Position numbers and translations under genes: made by a program. A stretch of 64,000 nucleotides of DNA from a phage, in the NCBI GenBank assembly GCA_032986305.1, contig GCA_032986305.1_3672.1, one strand, 5' to 3'. Under the pieces are notes generated by a model. The model saw nothing but the letters and a program-made list of their open reading frames with translations. It was not told where the DNA came from and did not search any database. This document shows positions 3,881 through 62,838 of the stretch, piece by piece. Position 1 is the stretch's first letter. Every line of letters starts with the position of its first letter.

Positions 3881-5163
3881 TGCATCAAATCAAAACAACA
3901 CTGTACGCACTGAACAAAGATGGCAGCTACCAACAGTGGAAAGTATTCACTGATGGCGAAAAGGTTATCGTAGAGTTTGGCAAGCTTGACGGTAAATTGC
4001 AGTACAAAGAGACGGTATGCACACCTAAGAACGTAGGTCGTGCCAATGAGACTACAGCTGAGCAACAGGCCGAGCTTGAGGCTATCAGCAAGTGGGAAAA
4101 ACAAGTCCGTCTGGGGTATGTTGAAAACATGGAAGATTGCGAGCAGGGTGTTGATCTTTTACCCATGCTGGTGCATGACTACCTGAAGCGTGGCAAGGCA
4201 CTTAAACTACCTTGCTGGATCTTGCGTAAGTTAGATGGCCTTCGTCTGCTTGTTGTTTTCCAAAATGGTGAGCCTAAATTTATTTCCCGTGGTAATAAGT
4301 CCTACCCTATTCAAGGAAAGCTTTTAGAGCAACTTCGTTCTTTCCATTCTACCACTGGGATTAAACAACTTGATGGGGAACTATACATTCATGGTCTTCC
4401 TTTGCAGAAAATAGTGTCTCTTGCTAAACGGTGGCGAACACAGGAAGAGATTCAGGCCGAGATCGATAAAGACTATGAGGCAGATAAAAAACGCCGTCAT
4501 ACCGCAATTAAGGCAGGCTTATCAACATACAAAAACTTCAACAAGGTAGATATTCCTGTCGATGTTGAGCCTGTTCGTGATGATTTGCGTTACGGTGGGT
4601 ACTGTAGCTACGATCTTGAGTATCACATTTTTGATATTCCTAGCGACAAGGTGTGGTGGGATCCAGAAACAGAGTCTGGACGCTGCAAGGATCTTATGGA
4701 TGCAGAGGATACCGTTACCACTCTGATGCTTGACCATATCAAGGTTGTTGACGCAGAGCTTGCGTACACAGTTGATCATTGCGAAGAATCTGTTGGTATA
4801 TTCATGTCCGAAGGATATGAAGGTACTATCATGCGTAATTTCTGCGGTAAATATGAGTATGGTCAGAGAACATCTGAAGCATTGAAATGGAAAAAGTTCA
4901 ACGACGCAGAGGTGAAAGTTATTGACGTTGAGAAAGATAAGAATGATGAAGGTGTTCTTATCTGTGTTGACAAGGAAGGTGTTGTTGTTAAAATGAAGAT
5001 GAAAGGCACGCACGAGGAGCGTAGCTATGACAGGATGCAGGAAATGATCGGCAAGTTTGTCACCTTCAAATATCAAGCAAGGACAGAAGACAACAACTAC
5101 CAATTCCCTGTCGGTATCTGCGTCCGAAATGTTAACCCAGACACTTGGGAGGTGCTGGAATAA
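3880..5163 (+). CDS. ATP-dependent DNA ligase
   Basis: 427 aa; nucleotidyltransferase motif I KLDGLR; EGTIMRN motif; resembles recalled T7 gp1.3 layout. Confidence 0.7.
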   Translation: MHQIKTTLYALNKDGSYQQWKVFTDGEKVIVEFGKLDGKLQYKETVCTPKNVGRANETTAEQQAELEAISKWEKQVRLGYVENMEDCEQGVDLLPMLVHDYLKRGKALKLPCWILRKLDGLRLLVVFQNGEPKFISRGNKSYPIQGKLLEQLRSFHSTTGIKQLDGELYIHGLPLQKIVSLAKRWRTQEEIQAEIDKDYEADKKRRHTAIKAGLSTYKNFNKVDIPVDVEPVRDDLRYGGYCSYDLEYHIFDIPSDKVWWDPETESGRCKDLMDAEDTVTTLMLDHIKVVDAELAYTVDHCEESVGIFMSEGYEGTIMRNFCGKYEYGQRTSEALKWKKFNDAEVKVIDVEKDKNDEGVLICVDKEGVVVKMKMKGTHEERSYDRMQEMIGKFVTFKYQARTEDNNYQFPVGICVRNVNPDTWEVLE

Positions 5164-5316
5164 TTTAGGTATGCTTAGTAGATAACGGTAGCCAATTGAA
5201 TAAGTGTTTTCAATTTGCACCTACATATACCCTGATGTATGCACTGTGCAACCTAGCCACACCACACAGTGGTGCTGATCGGGGCCTCGTTATGAGTGAA
5301 CTGGAGAGTATGAAAA

Positions 5317-37499: not shown

Positions 37500-37805
37500 A
37501 TGGCTAAATCTAAAGTTGAACTGTTCACCTCTCTTCCTTCTGACACTGCAGAGCGTGATCGCCTTCGCAAGACAATCGAAGAACTGGTTGAACTCCAACT
37601 TCAGATTAAAGATCTGAAAGATGCCATTAAGGATATCATTCTCGTTGAGAAGCAGGATCATCTGTATTCTCCTAAATTCATCAAATCTCTGGTGGCTACC
37701 GAGTTCGATATTCGCTATGAGGCTGAAAAACGTCGAGCTAAAATCGAAGAAGAGGTTGAGCACATGTCTGAGGCAGACATTCTGTTCAAACGCTCTGTAG
37801 AATAA
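37500..37805 (+). CDS. hypothetical coiled-coil protein
   Basis: RBS AAGGAGA; charged heptad-like sequence. Confidence 0.45.
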   Translation: MAKSKVELFTSLPSDTAERDRLRKTIEELVELQLQIKDLKDAIKDIILVEKQDHLYSPKFIKSLVATEFDIRYEAEKRRAKIEEEVEHMSEADILFKRSVE

Positions 37806-39187: not shown

Positions 39188-39403
39188 ATGAAGATAGAAA
39201 TATTTGGTGGAGCTGACAACACTCGTGGCCTGATTTACCTTGAATTCGATGAATCATACCTGCCAGAGGTGTTAAATATAAACTCTGTTGCTGAGGCTTT
39301 GGGAGTAAACCCTAAAGAACTCCACTCTTGTGCTGAGATCGATGGTTGGGAAGAGACCATGAACATTGATTTCAGTGAAGTAGAGGATGAACCGCTGGAC
39401 TGA
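39188..39403 (+). CDS. hypothetical protein (MKIEI small paralog family)
   Basis: MKIEIFGGADNT..., RBS AGAGGAGA. Confidence 0.45.
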   Translation: MKIEIFGGADNTRGLIYLEFDESYLPEVLNINSVAEALGVNPKELHSCAEIDGWEETMNIDFSEVEDEPLD

Positions 39404-40985
39404 CACACAATTAGCTGCCCGGCTAAAGTGCTGGAAGCACCTATAACACATCTTTCAACTAAATTTCCCACCACCACAATCACTTACCTCCCACACATGA
39501 CTGTTTGCTTGTTTAGTGAGCAGTCATGCCTTGACATTCTTGCCTATCCTGATAAAATTAAGTTCTTCTCTTTTCTTTTACCGAGTAATTCGGGTTTTCT
39601 GTTCTCTTCGGTTTGAAGAGGTATGGAGATACACCTGAGTGAACAGGGTGAACAACCGAACCATTGGCTATGGCATTAGCATGGCGAAGCGGACGGGTGA
39701 CGAAAGAGGGGCCGGAGGACACCAGTCACTGCCATATGATATACGGGTGATAACCTGAAGAGTCTGAATAAGTGTTTAAGTACCAGTCAGAGGAAAAGGT
39801 GAATGGTAGCCGAAGGGGGAGGGGGGTTTCTTGTATCTTTAATTTGTATATTATGTATACACTTGTAAACCAATCTCATCTGAATCTGTTTACTACACAA
39901 AGCTGATAGGGACAAATATTACCTATTAAACTTGAATTATTTATAGAAAATACCACAACACAACTTAAGTCTTTGATTTTACACACAAATCCTGCAGATA
40001 TTCACCCTCCATATTTAACATACTTGTAACATATTCCATACTCTACCTACCTGATCAATTTACCCACCAACATCCTCCATATTTTCCCTGTCTGTACCAC
40101 CCCTGCCCCGCCGGGAGTCCCGTCATATCTGGCTTTCCAGCAAATATCACACCCACAAATATCATTGCCTGAAGAGGATTTCATCTCATAATACATGCCT
40201 TGCCTGAAGAGCGCTTCATACACCACGTAAATTTTTTAATTGACCCCCTCCCCGCCGCCGGAGAGGTTGGCTTTTCCCACACAGACCTGAAGAGTCAGCC
40301 AGAAATATCTGAATGGACCCAATTCTGCCCTGTTATGAGCCGTAGCTACTGGAGTGCTGCCAGGCGGACGAAATGGGAATACTTCTCATTCTTATAACAA
40401 TTCTCAAATATCAAGGCAGTGAGTCAAATTAATAGGCGAGGCCGTTCACACAGTGGCACAACATTTGCAACCTATCTTGTGGGGGTGAATGAGAATACCT
40501 ATCATTGTGAGAATAGTTATCATTACGGGCAATTTAACATAATACCCATTATGCGCACCACTGGCGATACATACAGGGATTGATAACATGAGTTACTGTT
40601 TACGCATATAACAATTATATTTCTTACTATTTGTGTGGGATATAGTTAGCAGCCAATAGATTAGATATTGACCTGTAGACTTCCAACCGTCTAGACGTCT
40701 AAACGCCCACACAGCAAGGGTTATACATACACTTCTGAATGTAAACAGGGCCGCAAAAATGCTACCATACCAGTTTGTAAATTTTTCATGCAGCACTTGA
40801 CAAAGAGGAGAAAAACTTGTCTGACACTTTAGACACAATAGTGACATACTATGACACCTTTGACACTTTTGCATACCTGATTGTTTGCATGTCTAATAGT
40901 TTACATGGATAACTGTTCACATACTTATCATTTACATGATTGACTGTTTACACAAATATGATAAGCCATGACATTCGTTTGCATG

Positions 40986-41045
40986 AAAACAATTAACAAG
41001 ATAACAATTGACAAGCTAACAGCCAACAAGCTGACAATTAACAGG
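40986..41045. repeat. four tandem 15-bp iteron-like direct repeats
   Basis: AACAATTAACAAG / ATAACAATTGACAAG / CTAACAGCCAACAAG / CTGACAATTAACAGG. Confidence 0.6.
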
Positions 41046-41056
41046 TTAATAATATA

Positions 41057-41229
41057 TGACATAATATAAAAGCAGGGCAACTATTAGCAGATCTATAGTT
41101 GCCTTGCTTGTTATGTCATGATTAACTAAATACAAGGCAACTATGATCTGATTAATAGTTTGCAGACAAACTATCACGGGGGTGATTGTTACTGCTTTTA
41201 TATTATGTCGCGACTCCGTCGCGACATGT
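41057..41229. repeat. nested inverted repeats (cruciform-capable locus)
   Basis: 19-bp arms TGACATAATATAAAAGCAG and CTGCTTTTATATTATGTCA; inner hairpin GGCAACTAT...ATAGTTGCC; 10-bp palindrome ATGTCGCGAC..GTCGCGACAT. Confidence 0.6.
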
Positions 41230-41854
41230 CATTCGTTTGCATAGTTGCCTTATTGTTACGGATAAAATAATTGTATTGTTAATTATTTCTTATCTTTCTC
41301 TTAGTCATCTAATGATTCCAGTCAGTATAGTAATGTACAGTAAACATTAGACGACTAAATATTTCTCTGATTATAGTAACCTATCGTGACAATTTCGGAC
41401 TGTTTACGAAAAATGTTGACACCTGGGCAGGTTTATGTTATGCAGTTTGTACGAATAATTATTTTATACAGGTATTGACTATTCCGTTATTCTGTGGTTG
41501 GAATAAATACTTTGCAGGCTATAGAATGATGTTCGTACGTGAATTCTGAGATCTGTCGGCTATAGTTACACCCGATTTTTCACGTAGGACACGCTTTTTG
41601 GTTTGTGTAAGTGTATGACTTATAAGGGTTTTTAATTGTTGACAGTATGCTGAAAATGTGCATCAGGTTAAATTTTGTGCAATAGCTGCATTACGTGCGT
41701 TTTTGGAAGGAAAAACGTGTAAAAATGACCCTGCTACCACAAGATGAAAGATTATGCAATAGTTATTTTATATGTATATTTGTACAGTGTGCGGGATTAA
41801 TGGCTCGTCAATTATTCCACTTGCCAGGTAGGGCCGTTTATGGTAGGAAAAGAG

Positions 41855-41883
41855 CAAACAAAAAGAAAGGGGCCTAAGCCCCT
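41855..41883 (-). terminator. intrinsic terminator for leftward gene block
   Basis: AGGGGC-cuaa-GCCCCU hairpin; on minus strand followed by UUCUUUUUGUUUG. Confidence 0.6.
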
Positions 41884-41895
41884 TGATAATGTTTA

Positions 41896-42243
41896 TTATT
41901 TGTTTCTCATCCAGCTTTCCCAAGCTGCCTGATAATCTGCCTCACTGCGGCGGATCTCTTCTTGCTCTTCAAGCCGGATCTCTTCTTCCAGGTACCCCAG
42001 GATATCAGCCTTTTTGGTCTGGCGTAACATCCAATCATCTTTTTTACGAGTAAAGATCTTGTACGCTTTCTCGCAAACCTCCTTTTTACTACCTTTTTGG
42101 ACTTCAATAACTTTGTAGGCCATGTACTGAACTAGTTTGAGCTGATCAAGGCGTTTCATGATGTTTTCCTCTTTATGGGGTTCTGGTTTGGTGGGCCTTT
42201 TGGCCCGTGTCATTATCTTATTACTTACGGCGGCAAAATTCAA
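41896..42243 (-). CDS. hypothetical protein
   Basis: 115 aa, basic/charged. Confidence 0.45.
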   Translation of the reverse strand: MNFAAVSNKIMTRAKRPTKPEPHKEENIMKRLDQLKLVQYMAYKVIEVQKGSKKEVCEKAYKIFTRKKDDWMLRQTKKADILGYLEEEIRLEEQEEIRRSEADYQAAWESWMRNK

Positions 42244-42576: not shown

Positions 42577-42696
42577 CTGTTTTTATAGTTTTTATATAAC
42601 GGGCACCCCCGGTGATTGTCTCCCCCCCGTCGCCAGGTGCCACCCGTGAGATAAGTATAACAAAAAACAGGACCATTGCAAGCCCTGTTTATTATC

Positions 42697-50869: not shown

Positions 50870-51838
50870 CCAGGTTTGCAAGCCTTCATTCTCTCCTACC
50901 TGGTCAGTTAGGTCCTACCAGGCTGGCCCCGCCAGGTTGCAGCGGTTAGCGCATCAGGTTAGAAAATTTTTTTGAAAAGTGTTGACAGCGGCCCAGCCAG
51001 GTGGCACAATATACCTATCGAAAGGACGGCAGGCACCGGTGACGGGGGAGACAACCACCGGGGATGGGCGCTGCATAAAATGAGAACGGTTATCATTATC
51101 CTTTAAAAATTTATGCAAAAATCCTTGCTTTCTTTGTCCTGTGTGATACTATAATAACAAGCCGGGGCAACAGGGGCCGGGAGACAATCACCGGGCCTGC
51201 CCGTTATTCTGCAAACGAGAATGATTATCATTCAAAATTCTAAATGAGAACTCCTCGCATTTAATAAATTTAATTAGCATGCTAATTACCCTCCGTAACA
51301 ATTTCCTATAAAACAGTATCCCATAAAATATTCCCATACAGAAATTTTAAAAATCCATTTCTGAAAACGAAAAATCGATTTCGTCCCCAAAAATTTCAGG
51401 TCGAGATCCGGAACGATTTCTAGAAAATCCGATTTAGAAAACGAAAAACAGATCGAGTACTGAGAAATTTATCGAGAAAAATTTTCAGAAAATTCAATCT
51501 TTGAAACGAAAAACAGATCGAGTACCTGGAAAGCTGCACTGCAACTTCAAGATAGTGGTTAGATTATTACCATAGAAGGTCAAGGGTAAGTGGAGGAAGT
51601 TCTAGTAGAAGGATGTGAGCATGTGTGGGAAATCTGTAATGGTGGCCTGAAATATGGTGCAAACGATAGGATGAGTGATTCAGCTTGTCGCGCCTACTCT
51701 GAAAAAATCCATTTTAGTTTTCGATCCATTTTCTGATTTTCTAAGGATTTTAAAATATCCGGCCCGGTGAAATATCAAAAGGAGGAAATCCATTTTAGAA
51801 ATCCCCCTTATACTTGATATGCCAGGAATTTTCAAGTA
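50870..51838. other. non-coding repeat-rich region
   Basis: No ORF of 60 aa or more; two paralogous promoter-hairpin units at about 50980-51240; direct repeats AAATCCATTT (x5) and GAAAACGAAAAACAGATCGAGTAC (x2). Confidence 0.5.
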
Positions 51839-60138: not shown

Positions 60139-60414
60139 CAATAGTTCAGGTAGGTCGTTAAGCTACCCCGCACCATTACGTGCATAGCCATACGTTTTCA
60201 CGTAGGATCGGACCATCTCATATTCCTATGATAAGCAACCACAGGAATCCTCCCATTTCGACCGCACTTGCTGGTCTACTTCCTTTCGGAATGGCCTCTG
60301 AGCGTTCGCTCTTTTGAGCGCTTCGTTGCGGATTACCTTGCCATAAGGTTTAGGCTTCCCGCAGTTAAAGAGGTTATTCGACATAGATTACTCTATGAAG
60401 CCACAATGTTATTT
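60139..60414 (-). mobile_element. group I-type intron in DNA polymerase gene (ORF-less, about 276 nt)
   Basis: Separates ...IIYYH from DEYQLQV at motif C; exon 1 ends in U, intron ends in G. Confidence 0.5.
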
Positions 60415-62838
60415 ATGGTAATAAATAATACGACGAACACCTTCATCGTACCACCCACGCTTCACCATTTGGTGGTGCATGAGTATCCCAACTAAGTCAC
60501 ACAGCGATGCACCACCATTCTGTTGGTATGCATTAAGTAAAGAGTGTTTAGATCGGGTCCAGATGGCATGACCATCAAAAGAGTAGATAAACTTCTTACC
60601 CGTTGCTTCCCAGAATTTCTCCAGATCCTCTTTACGCCCCTTAAGACCAGGGTTGGCATCCCAAAGTGCATCGATTACCCTTTGTCCCAACTCTGGAGAG
60701 ATGTCCAGCATATCTGCAACTTTATCTTTTTGTGCCCCGTACATAACCCCATACGTGATAGGTTTACCGTCGTTACGGGACACCTCTCTGCCTGCTACTT
60801 TTGTATATGCCTCAGCATTGTTTTGGTGTGCGTCTCCGTTACTTACAACATCGTAATACAGGCCGTTGTCGAACTCAAAGGCACCCCAAGCCCCGATAAG
60901 CTGCTCTAAGTTGGACCCGTCGATACCGATCTCAAAGTATCCTGGAGGAACACCCCACAAGCTACGCATCTCTTTACCCATAACCACTTTAGGAGAGGGT
61001 TTAGGCATGTTTGCACAAATACTGTGTTTCTGTCTGGAAGTGTTTGTTAATCCAGAGCTTTTAGCAGGAAGCTTATGGTCAATCTTCAAGCGTGGGTGAT
61101 TAAGAAGACCAGTATCAACCTTATCCTCCTTGATCGGATCAAGGACCGATCTGCGGTTTCGCAATGATAACCACAAGACGATATCTTTAGCCATCTCTCC
61201 GTTCAATTTTTCAAGATTCGGACATAGGTGTCCAAACGTATCTTTCAGTTGCGGAGAAGTAATAAGTGCCCTAGCTTTTCTACGTATTTTCCTGAATACT
61301 TCCTTTTTAATCCTTTCGGAGTTAGGAAAGCTTCGGAACTTGTGCACAGTTGTCTGGAACTTAGCATCAGTTTTGTTCCAGAAGTTGATAATTAGGTCAC
61401 AATACTCTGACTCCAAAAGCTCGTCCATATATGCATATACTCGTGCATCAACATCTGCATCAGGTAAAGCTTTCTTCTTGCTGTCTTTAGTTACATCCTT
61501 AGTTCTCCACATTGTCGGAAGCCAGCCAGCACTGATCAGGTATCGCTTAATGTCGTCCTGGTTGCTGATTTTCATAGGTATCTTGCAGTCCGGCATTCGC
61601 TTCTGCTGTAGATCACTTATTGCCTGATCCATCAACTCTTTAGGTAAAGGGTGTGGTGTGGAAGTGCCCTTAATATAGCCTCTCAAGAAATCAGCCATCT
61701 TATCGGGGTCTTTGCATCCCATCTCTTCACACCATTTTATCCCCATCTTGCTGACATCTCCTGTAGAGGTAAATGCTCTCTTAGGCGGGGCTTTGAACTC
61801 TAAAGCGCTCATGTCTACAGGATATCCAAGCTTATCTTTTAACCATTTCCAACCATTATTAGAGATTGTCCCGTCTTGGTTAAACGGCTTTTCAGGGAAC
61901 TTGGGCCGCTGAGACATTGACAGCTCTTTTAAAGGCAGTTGTGGTTCAACACGATCAGCGATTTCTTTCATCCACGCATCGCAACGGTCACGTAAAGCAA
62001 TAGCTCCATCTATGTCGAAATATACGCCCTGACGGGCCTGCAGCTCCATCAGGAAGTGCTGCAGCATACCTCGGCGCAATGCGTTCTTCCAGGTGATCTT
62101 CTTGAACCCTTTTGGCTTCTCTTTGGCAGGATCGTACATAAAGTTCTGCATGTCAGATTTGCCGTAGAATACACCTTTTGATTCCGCTACCAGCTCTTTC
62201 CAGAGCAACTCCTGGATGATAACGTCCTCGAATACACGATCCACATACTTCCACAACGGAAGATCGCGCCAGTCATCAATTTGAACTTTCTGGTTACCAA
62301 GGGCGTAGCCCCATGCCATAAGGCCGTGAGGACCAACAGGCTGCATTTTCTTAGTAACCGGGTTGAATACAGCGTCCGGACAACCTTTTGGTAAAGGGCG
62401 ATCAGGCCACAAGATTCGGCTCATCGCCAACGTATCAAACAGGTTAACCTGGTGGTCGTTGATAGTCCCCATACATTTAGGATCACGGAACATATCAAAA
62501 TGAATACCGGATAATCTCTCCATCAGCATAAAGTCATAACTATAGCAGTTATGGCAGTTCAAAGCTGTTGGTGACCAGTCGGAATTGCCTGTAAGCCAAC
62601 CTTCCAACTCCGAAAAATCTGCTATGCGAACTTCAAAATCTTTATAAAGAGCTTTCTTTGCCAGAATAAAGTTCTTAGCCTTCTCTATATCCTCCTCGGA
62701 GTAGTGTGTGCGGTCATTTAGAGGGAGGAACAGCATAAAACGGTTCTTATTCAGCTCTTTAAACAGGCCGCAGTGATAATAAAGATCTGGGTCTTCCAAA
62801 AGCCCGGAGGCCTCAAAATCGAAGCTATACATGCTCAT
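60415..62838 (-). CDS. DNA polymerase (family A, T7 gp5-like), exon 1
   Basis: N-terminal exo FDFEASGLLEDPDLYYHCG like T7 VSDIEANALLESVTKFHCG; motif A GIDGSNLEQL; motif B RNDGKPITYGVMYG. Confidence 0.8.

Follow-up and report, generated by a model that had tools for sequence, protein, structure and literature searches.

A conserved hairpin module beside the direct terminal repeat in the non-coding gap of a Vequintavirus genome

Phages of the Vequintavirinae are widely used in therapy and biocontrol, and a 2.5-kb region of their genomes has been drawn empty since the rV5 genome paper, in which the gap is a grey "non-coding" box with no function assigned (PMC3606486). Here, we report on this gap in a 64,000-nucleotide stretch of phage DNA (GenBank assembly GCA_032986305.1, contig GCA_032986305.1_3672.1; this whole stretch is called the window), which by its sequence is a Vequintavirus, an rV5-like Escherichia coli myovirus. 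Inside the gap, next to the direct terminal repeat (DTR) found at both ends of the virion genome, lies a conserved module of hairpins. The DTR and the non-coding box were already known; for the module and its conservation, no description was found in the searched literature and no family in Rfam.

The non-coding gap and the physical genome ends

A reading made from the letters alone (the sequence-only reading) had singled out 40970-41245 as an origin-like core of tandem repeats, nested inverted repeats and a flanking direct repeat, and had offered a replication origin, a partition site or a packaging site as its function. It had placed this core in an AT-rich non-coding gap between convergent gene blocks, and the setting is as described: 39404-41895 is free of open reading frames (ORFs) and GC content is 0.369 in 41001-42000, against ~0.43 elsewhere in the window. 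More than 100 Vequintavirus records align to the gap at ~90% identity, and the 2.1 kb around the core match 122 phage records (102 over ≥80% of the length, mostly at 90-95% identity). The sole sizeable ORF of the gap (93 aa, 40593-40874, - strand) was rejected as a gene, since it carries stops in 14 of 16 aligned relatives and has no third-position bias. The features needed below are as follows.

39404-41895, no strand: ORF-free gap between a + strand block and a - strand block, convergent (ORF list)
40363-40821, + strand: DTR, 459 bp, GGCGGACGAAATGGG ... GAAAAACTTGTC, at both virion genome ends (homologous block in related records and two papers)
40532-40558, + strand: DTR core motif ATTTAACATAAWAC-N3-TTATRCGCAC, kept across the subfamily (exact-pattern scan, 21 IMG/VR loci)
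40822-40875, + strand: TGACAY array, five copies set 9-12 bp apart, the first at the base that follows the DTR (sequence and alignment)
40868-40960, + strand: TTTRCAT / TGTTTACR array, 15-16 bp period, ~7 copies (repeat finders)
40965-40984, + strand: direct repeat DR1, GCCATGACATTCGTTTGCAT (repeat finder and exact match)
40988-41047, + strand: four tandem 15-bp repeats, AACAATTNACAAGNT, the "iterons" of the sequence-only reading (Tandem Repeats Finder [TRF] score, 70)
41058-41075, + strand: left arm of outer stem P1, GACATAATATAAAAGCAG, with an extended -10-like TGaCATAAT inside (repeat finder and exact match; invariant in 15 of 16 aligned relatives)
41076-41103, + strand: hairpin H1, GGCAACTAT-N10-ATAGTTGCC (repeat finder and exact match)
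41133-41165, + strand: hairpin H2, CAAGGCAACTAT-N10-ATAGTTTGCAG (repeat finder and folds)
41170-41191, + strand: hairpin H3, ACTATCAC GGGG GTGATTGT, with an unpaired GTTA before the right arm in every lineage (folds and cross-lineage comparison)
41192-41209, + strand: right arm of P1, CTGCTTTTATATTATGTC, ending ...GTC (repeat finder and exact match)
41205-41227, + strand: GC box, two self-complementary GTCGCGAC forming a hairpin with a TCC loop (exact match; terminator-like on the + strand by scan)
41223-41242, + strand: direct repeat DR2, GACATGTCATTCGTTTGCAT (repeat finder and exact match)
41241-41258, + strand: fifth ATAGTTGCCTT half-site, ATAGTTGCCTTATTGTTA (repeat finder and exact match; kept in phage FV3)

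The physical ends fall within the gap. The HdK5 record (MK373780) starts inside it and carries an identical 459 bp at both ends, equivalent to 40363-40821 of the window; exact termini on this block are seen in eight records, at both ends in HdK5, EdH4, Gotham and YN3 and at one end in the other four, and across 120 records the block is 93-97% identical, above its surroundings. A terminal redundancy of 458 bp was reported for HdK5 and EdH4 (PMC6563267), and 459-bp terminal repeats with a single specific packaging start for Gotham (PMC7471380). The fixed ends are deduced from these related records and papers. The sequence-only reading had suggested mapping the ends as a check, which proved decisive, and the mapped DTR adjoins the repeat region: the core lies ~150-420 bp inward of the DTR at the left end (about positions 608-883 of virion DNA), and the outer stem begins 237 bp inward. 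Since the DTR maps next door, a genome-end role is the best supported of the three functions first offered.

The termini share properties with T7-type ends. The homologous 459-bp block in relatives is a short, exact repeat that occupies both physical ends and has fixed boundaries, and the sequences at the boundary cut sites are conserved; the right boundary reads ...TTGT(G)T(C/T) before and T(A/G)(G/A)CA after the cut, at the homologous position in Vequintavirus, KPP-1, UPEC06 and Hena1. Short degenerate direct-repeat arrays abut the terminal repeat at 40822-40960, on one side only.

Three further observations concern the DTR itself. Shigella phage CM1 (L015, MK962749) carries at 1084-2129 a 523-bp tandem duplication of the DTR and the next 64 bp (the TGACAY array). 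The terminal repeat may have caused an error of assembly here, or the repeat is longer and has its right boundary where the array stops. The sequence GAGAAYNNTTATCATT has four copies in the window, all on the + strand (0.1 expected), located in the DTR (40491-40524) and at 51082-51097 and 51217-51232; by eye it was likened to the E. coli Fur box, and ATGATAA...TTATCAT palindromes in and beside the KPP-1 module are similar. Eighteen or 19 GenBank MG0656xx "Campylobacter phage" records (e.g., L014 and L018) are Vequintaviruses with a DTR 93-97% identical to that of the window; two were inspected and found UNVERIFIED and unannotated, and the set is probably mislabelled or derived from contaminants.

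The hairpin module and the variable arrays

Exact-match checks and repeat finders recovered the motifs of the sequence-only reading, none of which occurs elsewhere in the window. Its four tandem 15-bp repeats appear as a TRF array (40988-41043; period, 15; 3.7 copies; 75% matches); TRF reports just one other tandem repeat in the 64 kb, and it too lies within the gap. The long inverted arms, GACATAATATAAAAGCAG (41058-41075) and CTGCTTTTATATTATGTC (41192-41209), are perfect and 116 nt apart, and measure 18 bp, not the 19 bp first given (the 19th pair sets T opposite G). The hairpin motifs GGCAACTAT (at 41076 and 41136) and ATAGTTGCC (at 41095 and 41241) make two hairpin-capable pairs and, beyond what had been listed, a fifth half-site. 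The perfect 10-bp palindrome, ATGTCGCGAC (41205-41214) and GTCGCGACAT (41218-41227), has a 3-nt loop, and the repeat noted at both ends, CATTCGTTTGCAT (40972 and 41230), extends to 18/20 nt in the window (40965-40984 and 41223-41242), both copies reading GCCATGCCATTCGTTTGCAT in most aligned relatives.

The concentration of such elements is local. Counted in 280-bp sliding windows, 9-mers with a nearby reverse complement number 22 here, against a window-wide mean of 0.65 (standard deviation, 1.4), and the eight top inverted-repeat windows all lie at 40941-41081, a density unequalled elsewhere in the 64 kb. For folds of the 192-nt core, the z scores are -8.5 (RNA, + strand), -10.7 (RNA, - strand) and -11.5 (DNA), and none of 200 shuffles was as good.

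Comparison with 16 aligned relatives, to which the anatomy and the identities to the window refer, separates the region into two layers, and it is best explained as the subterminal control region of a DTR phage, in which fast-evolving arrays accompany a conserved structured module. The module (41054-41242, i.e., 41054-41209 with the GC hairpin and DR2) is 97.7% identical in relatives and is the best-conserved part of the gap, against 44-67% for the arrays. The TGACAY array varies in copy number and sequence (mean identity, 0.60), and the TTTRCAT array has a mean identity of 0.67, with ~12 TTTAC units in JES2013. Least conserved are the 15-bp units (0.44), which number 0-4 copies in relatives or are replaced; EmilHeitz has none, and Murica-type phages carry a GC hairpin instead. 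This variation in number and sequence occurs between phages that are otherwise ~95% identical.

Within the module, the minimum-energy fold pairs H2 with H1 into one long hairpin, and a 33-bp insertion in three relatives, just after H1, falls at the exact apex of this predicted hairpin. A promoter scan at the left arm found TTAACA-16-CATAAT with TG, its -10 element (TGaCATAAT) at 41057-41065. The GC box is homologous to GCTCGCTACGCTCGCGCCAC and GCGCCTCCGGCGCGCC in other genera and follows the right arm in all lineages.

The palindrome GGCAACTAT-N10-ATAGTTGCC was considered as a wider operator and rejected: an IMG/VR scan found it beyond Vequintavirus only in two T4-like terminator hairpins and in one unrelated viral contig, L024 (IMGVR_UViG_3300037721_000035), all taken to be coincidences. 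The L024 locus (4780-5190) is itself AT-rich and intergenic and looks like an origin, with GGCAAC(TAT)/GTTGCC repeats crowded together in either orientation, and the 9-mer that it has in common with the module is most likely coincidental. Elsewhere in the window, a GC-rich hairpin element, CCGGTGA...GGGAGACAAYCACCGGG, is repeated near promoters (51033-51063 and 51165-51195, + strand; 42600-42645, - strand); H3 (CACGGGGGTGATTGT) is apparently related to it, both points coming from inspection by eye alone.

Position, conservation and covariation across the subfamily

Homologous modules occur in Mydovirus, Seunavirus, Certrevirus-like, Erwinia-phage and other lineages, 15 loci in at least eight lineages (12 from a pattern scan with the DTR core motif, which returned 21 IMG/VR loci, and three others). 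All 15 carry a perfect 16-22 bp inverted repeat, 410-704 bp downstream of the core motif and with a 71-204 nt spacer, which is the longest perfect inverted repeat in the 2.2 kb downstream of the motif; we estimate that perfect 16-bp repeats would arise by chance at ~2e-4 per search. The arrangement is one-sided, the 2.2 kb upstream of the motif holding no perfect inverted repeat >11 bp. A homologous GC-rich box, ...TCGCGCC(A/C)C, follows the module repeat at each of the 15 loci. Of the remaining loci, L031 and L032 show the start of the module, which is then truncated by the end of the sequence covered, and L034 and L047 (with 1.3 and 5.2 kb of downstream sequence) have no perfect inverted repeat ≥12 bp and carry short ACAC-type arrays instead.

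The arms differ in sequence by lineage and are perfectly complementary in each (GACATAATATAAAAGCAG, GACACTATAAAACGAG, AGCGACACAATAACACGGGAG, GACCAATAGAAAACAGGT and AGCCACCTATAAACGCTGATAG). The order of parts is shared: outer stem, a hairpin right after the left arm, at least one central hairpin, a last hairpin, the unpaired GTTA, the right arm and the GC box. Three lineages besides Vequintavirus show this layout next to a DTR. In Klebsiella phage KPP-1 (Mydovirus), the DTR is 514 bp long and was assigned by PhageTerm to the "T7 type" (PMC9862379). It too occupies an ORF-free gap flanked by convergent blocks; a perfect 21-bp inverted repeat (164-nt spacer) starts 309 bp inward, and the DNA fold of the module has a z score of -11.1. 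In UPEC06, a terminal overlap of 462 bp is followed by a perfect 16-bp inverted repeat 236 bp inward, and in Hena1, the contig end coincides with the predicted DTR boundary.

Synteny through a conserved 101-aa protein was tried for PVP-SE1 and set aside, since gene order differs there; the DTR core motif served instead. In the window, this protein (37500-37805, + strand) lies 2.5 kb from the DTR. Of the 225 records that match it, the 115 from Vequintavirus carry it at 99-100% identity, and the other genera of the subfamily at 42-60%; it has no Pfam match, is labelled a transcriptional regulator or a double-stranded DNA-binding protein in some records, and is a candidate DNA binder.

Covariation was assessed in an alignment of seven Mydovirus, Seunavirus and Erwinia-phage modules, with the structure derived by RNAalifold; within Vequintavirus the module is almost invariant. 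Sixteen of the 62 consensus pairs are compensatory, with both sides changed and pairing kept, and in the outer stem, compensatory changes affect 10 of 19 pairs. With this structure, pairing holds in 96.1% of cells, against 21-49% with the partners slid by 1-3 columns, and none of 500 shuffles reached the observed pairing, compensatory-pair count or covariation score. In some Mydovirus-type loci the last hairpin (H3) is swapped for one of different sequence. Judged from these alignments, selection keeps pairing and not a particular binding sequence, an indication of a folded single strand, whether of DNA or of RNA, more than of a duplex protein site.

Proposed role and alternative explanations

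Several observations favour the top (+) strand as the folded one. Over 12 loci, G-U/G-T pairs number 50 on the top strand against 20 on the bottom, one U-G pair is kept in six of the seven aligned sequences, and the top-strand RNA fold is more stable than that of the - strand in 12/12 lineage representatives and 14/14 Vequintavirus variants. Folded top-strand DNA would rank first and RNA second; RNA is placed second because no position-conserved promoter, no conserved terminator and no Rfam match were found and because the outer stem lies beyond the reach of a start from the -10 element. We therefore prefer, tentatively and with more reserve than conviction, a module that may serve as a folded single-strand cis element in end replication or concatemer processing, the folded form being DNA rather than RNA and the job being priming or processing.

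Such an element might act as follows. A concatemer junction would hold one DTR copy only, which calls for its duplication. Should the top strand be displaced or stay unreplicated across the DTR and the sequence to its right, the module could fold as single-stranded DNA (ssDNA). A new left end on the displaced top strand could be made only by priming to the right of the DTR and synthesis leftwards, and the module sits there; once folded, it might mark the priming site for the complementary strand, which would run leftward through the arrays and the DTR to the left terminus. Alternatively, the folded module might position processing or terminase machinery.

A possible primer site stands at the right arm, whose last letters are ATGTC in the window, GTGTC in four lineages and, in CR3-like phages, TGGTC. 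The recognition sequence of T7 primase is GTC, with GGGTC, TGGTC and GTGTC as its best sites (PMC2910064). A T7 gp4-type primase would be well served by an arm with GTC, GTGTC or TGGTC at its 3' edge. These phages encode such a primase: gp230 of rV5 is gp4-like (PMC3606486), and the proteins encoded in the window include a DnaB-like helicase domain and a family A DNA polymerase. The match of primase and site is a sequence-based lead only.

The comparison with T7 is close in part. Models of terminal-repeat duplication in T7 invoke strand displacement or primase-initiated synthesis, with a hairpin intermediate (PMC4281155). The T7 genome, examined directly, has a 160-bp terminal repeat and CCTAAAG units of 13-bp period that start 15 bp after the repeat, in arrays at nt 175-341 and, before the right-hand copy, at 39620-39727. 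Both systems have fixed termini with a short, exact DTR, and in both the subterminal DNA is non-coding and carries degenerate arrays of short direct repeats that start at most a few bases from the DTR (CCTAAAG in T7; TGACAY and TTTRCAT here). A gp4-like primase-helicase and a family A polymerase are also common to them, and packaging in KPP-1 is typed as T7-type. They differ in that the T7 arrays flank both sides of the repeat, whereas here they lie on one side only; that long perfect inverted repeats are missing from the terminal 1 kb of T7 at either end (at best 12 nt at 83%), the multi-hairpin module of 100-250 nt with its 16-22 bp closing stem being specific to Vequintavirinae; and that transcription here converges on the ends from host-type promoters, not from those of a phage RNA polymerase.

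Two other classes of element offer partial parallels. Single-strand origins (the complementary-strand origins of G4 and phiX174, f1 ori(-), F-plasmid Frpo and rolling-circle sso) are strand-specific hairpin clusters that act as folded ssDNA, and serve here as a lead, not a test. They too consist of a stable imperfect hairpin cluster of 100-250 nt, with a priming site (in the module, a putative one) at the hairpin foot and a -10-like element in the stem, and the module likewise has a stable structure kept by compensatory change, its strand bias being suggestive only. They differ in serving circular ssDNA replicons or transferred strands by means of host primase, RNA polymerase or PriA, and no sequence similarity between them and the module was found. 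The pRNA of phi29, without which packaging fails, is a structured RNA whose gene lies close to the left genome end, and thus also an end-proximal, structured, non-coding element of a linear phage genome; phi29, however, has protein-primed replication and a different packaging motor, and the module has no Rfam match.

Several points weigh against the folded-strand reading. FV3 (NC_019517), one of ~120 Vequintavirus records, lacks everything between the 20-bp direct repeats and keeps a single copy of them; if real, this deletion makes the module dispensable for laboratory growth, although the palindrome could instead have been lost in cloning or assembly, the sequencing being of the 2011 era. 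(EPFV3-03/2025, considered as a re-sequenced FV3, proved to be a Chinese isolate with no relation to it.) In V18, both the TTTRCAT array and DR1 are missing. Two announcements, using default PhageTerm, typed Vequintaviruses as circularly permuted or headful (PMC8407724, PMC13211470); these calls conflict with the fixed-end reports, yet are outweighed by them. The covariation comes from seven sequences, with the structure predicted from the same alignment, and cannot discriminate folded DNA from RNA. The G-U strand bias may be partly compositional, and in the window the bottom-strand z score is the more extreme. Finally, GTC is a mere trinucleotide, lies within a stem and not in ssDNA, and is missing from the arm end in the Erwinia-phage lineage and L035.

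A mobile element between the direct repeats was also considered. It has no match in 5,426 E. coli genomes, and DNA matches occur only in Vequintavirus records; the idea was dropped because deletion between the repeats in FV3 is the simpler reading.

The first alternative is a structured non-coding RNA (ncRNA) of ~100-250 nt, in which the long stem closes a multi-branch core, transcribed rightwards (+ strand), with its promoter placed at the left arm or shortly before it. The covariation with G-U pairs on the + strand and the uniformly more stable + strand RNA fold agree with it, as do promoter-like elements by the left arm (TGaCATAAT in the window, TTGACA-16-TATAAG in UPEC06, and TTGACT/TTGACA ~30 nt upstream in CR3-like loci). 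In Murica-type phages, a terminator-like GC hairpin stands just upstream, as if to insulate a separate transcription unit, and H3 followed by CTGCTTTTATATTAT resembles an intrinsic terminator. The position and quality of the promoter are, however, inconsistent across lineages, and because the sole decent -10 element in the window lies inside the left arm, a transcript from ~41072 would be unable to form the outer stem, where covariation is strongest. In other genera, the GC box is not followed by a conserved U-tract terminator, a covariance-model search of 39300-42000 against Rfam 15 gave no match even at E ≤ 5, and the searched literature held no Vequintavirinae transcriptomes. We consider an ncRNA unlikely.

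Somewhat less likely still is a primary replication origin, at which an initiator would bind the repeats or palindromes and AT-rich DNA at 41045-41072 would melt. Tandem direct repeats beside an AT-rich tract and palindromes resemble the architecture of iteron origins (lambda ori, iteron plasmids), the five 18-bp ATAGTTGCCYTG-type sites (two inverted pairs and a half-site) look like binding sites of a dimeric protein, and T7 has secondary origins at end-proximal promoters. Cumulative GC skew also peaks inside the gap; the rV5 authors, who sought an origin by skew, ascribed every switch, including that of the gap, to the orientation of transcription (PMC3606486). What speaks against an origin is that neither the sequence nor the number of the 15-bp "iterons" is conserved among near-identical phages; that the internal palindromes differ completely between genera while the structure persists, so that pairing is conserved and not a recognition sequence; that FV3 lacks the module; and that no initiator-like gene adjoins it. 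The 15 flanking proteins have no Pfam match above the gathering cut-off, and the label "DNA translocase FtsK" on the first gene to the right of the gap, rejected here, has no Pfam support. The tract at 41045-41072, AT-rich as it is, overlaps the left arm of the conserved stem. The classic iteron origin of the sequence-only reading was therefore not upheld, and neither was its partition site, which finds no support in a lytic myovirus with a linear genome; of its suggestions, a role at the genome end (packaging, concatemer processing or end replication) fares best.

A further explanation, which we hold improbable, is a pair of face-to-face intrinsic terminators that insulate the transcription of the convergent blocks from each other and act as an insulator at the genome end, with the arms as shared U-rich tails (CTGCTTTTATATTATG) on either strand. 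Two features of the gap outside the module are as follows.

39531-39558, + strand: strong sigma-70-like promoter, TTGACA-16-TAAAAT with TG, aimed at the DTR from the right-end side (top promoter-scan match, 11/12)
41867-41884, no strand: bidirectional terminator-like hairpin ending the - strand early block (scan; terminator annotated in the Alma, Murica and HdK5 records)

The scan scores 41204-41228 as terminator-like on the + strand, the Alma and Murica annotations put a - strand terminator on H1, the stems of H1 and H3 are followed by TTTTATATTAT, and the rV5 authors anticipated terminators acting in both directions between genes 163 and 164 (PMC3606486). Terminators would account for the U-rich arms in Vequintavirus, and redundancy with the hairpin at 41867-41884 would explain the loss of the module in FV3. 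Arms elsewhere are, however, not U-rich (e.g., CTCCCGTGTTATTGTGTCGCT in KPP-1) and yet perfectly complementary, a perfect 16-22 bp stem over 71-204 nt with compensatory changes is not needed for termination, and the loops are large and the stems AT-rich.

Equally improbable is a duplex protein-binding site, with a small terminase subunit (pac-type) or a phage regulator at the palindromes and no extrusion: the module adjoins the DTR cut sites, the ATAGTTGCC half-sites recur as inverted pairs with 10-bp spacers, and part of the outer arm (GACAC...TATAA) and the GC box are conserved in sequence across genera, but the inner arm halves and internal hairpins change compensatorily or are replaced by unrelated hairpins, and neither an asymmetric conserved unpaired GTTA nor a one-strand G-T excess would be expected of it.

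With the folded-strand reading still preferred, the module may also belong to a new subfamily-wide class of structured nucleic-acid element tied to DTRs, either an ssDNA signal for DTR duplication or an end-encoded ncRNA for packaging or end protection; this is possible, if doubtful. If true, it would give a genetic handle, in myoviruses of E. coli, Klebsiella and Salmonella, on the regeneration of short terminal repeats, which has only been modelled so far, T7 included. The physical ends are now placed within the non-coding box, with a covarying module inward of the left terminal repeat in all genera examined, a concrete cis element to mutate in studies of terminal-repeat duplication and genome-end maturation in fixed-end phages. 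In phage engineering or genome re-orientation, cutting or re-starting a genome in the gap may remove a conserved element, and in assembly, the DTR core motif followed by a perfect inverted repeat is a landmark for the true ends.

Other observations in and around the gap are minor. The promoter at 39531-39558 (+ strand) lies 805 bp from the DTR, a placement reminiscent of T7 phiOR; an ncRNA 3' of it was rejected, the fold of 39565-39840 (276 nt) being unremarkable (z = -0.9). The sequence CCTGAAGAG has eight copies in the window, all on the + strand (0.5 expected); five are non-coding and lie just left of the DTR (39106, 39754, 40168, 40203 and 40286), and the remaining three are codons for Pro-Glu-Glu. 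A similar ACCTGAAGTGTCAGCC stands to the left of the DTR in KPP-1. A hammerhead, suggested by the CCTGAAGAG repeats, was dropped given the blank Rfam result in the gap. Many relatives have an additional 420-bp - strand gene between the gap and a 264-bp gene (at 41896 in the window; 5102-5521 in L001), a "Rel homology domain" gene in the Murica annotation; it is absent from the window, FV3, HdK5, Alma and APCEc02, and where present contains one further GGCAACTAT/ATAGTTGCC 9-mer.

Farther from the gap, 50870-51835 is a second ORF-free, AT-rich island, located in the - strand block, in which GC and AT skew are locally reversed. It has two + strand sigma-70-like promoters, two copies of GAAAACGAAAAACAGATCGAGTAC, several of AAATCCATTT and the highest direct-repeat density of the window, and could hold small RNA genes or another cis site. 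The sole Rfam match at the gathering threshold in the whole window is a group I intron (RF00028; 64.7 bits; E = 4e-14) at 60189-60424 (- strand), in or abutting the ORF at 60409-62838 (- strand). The intron lies at the 3' side of this ORF, which has a family A DNA polymerase match, and the polymerase gene is apparently split by it.

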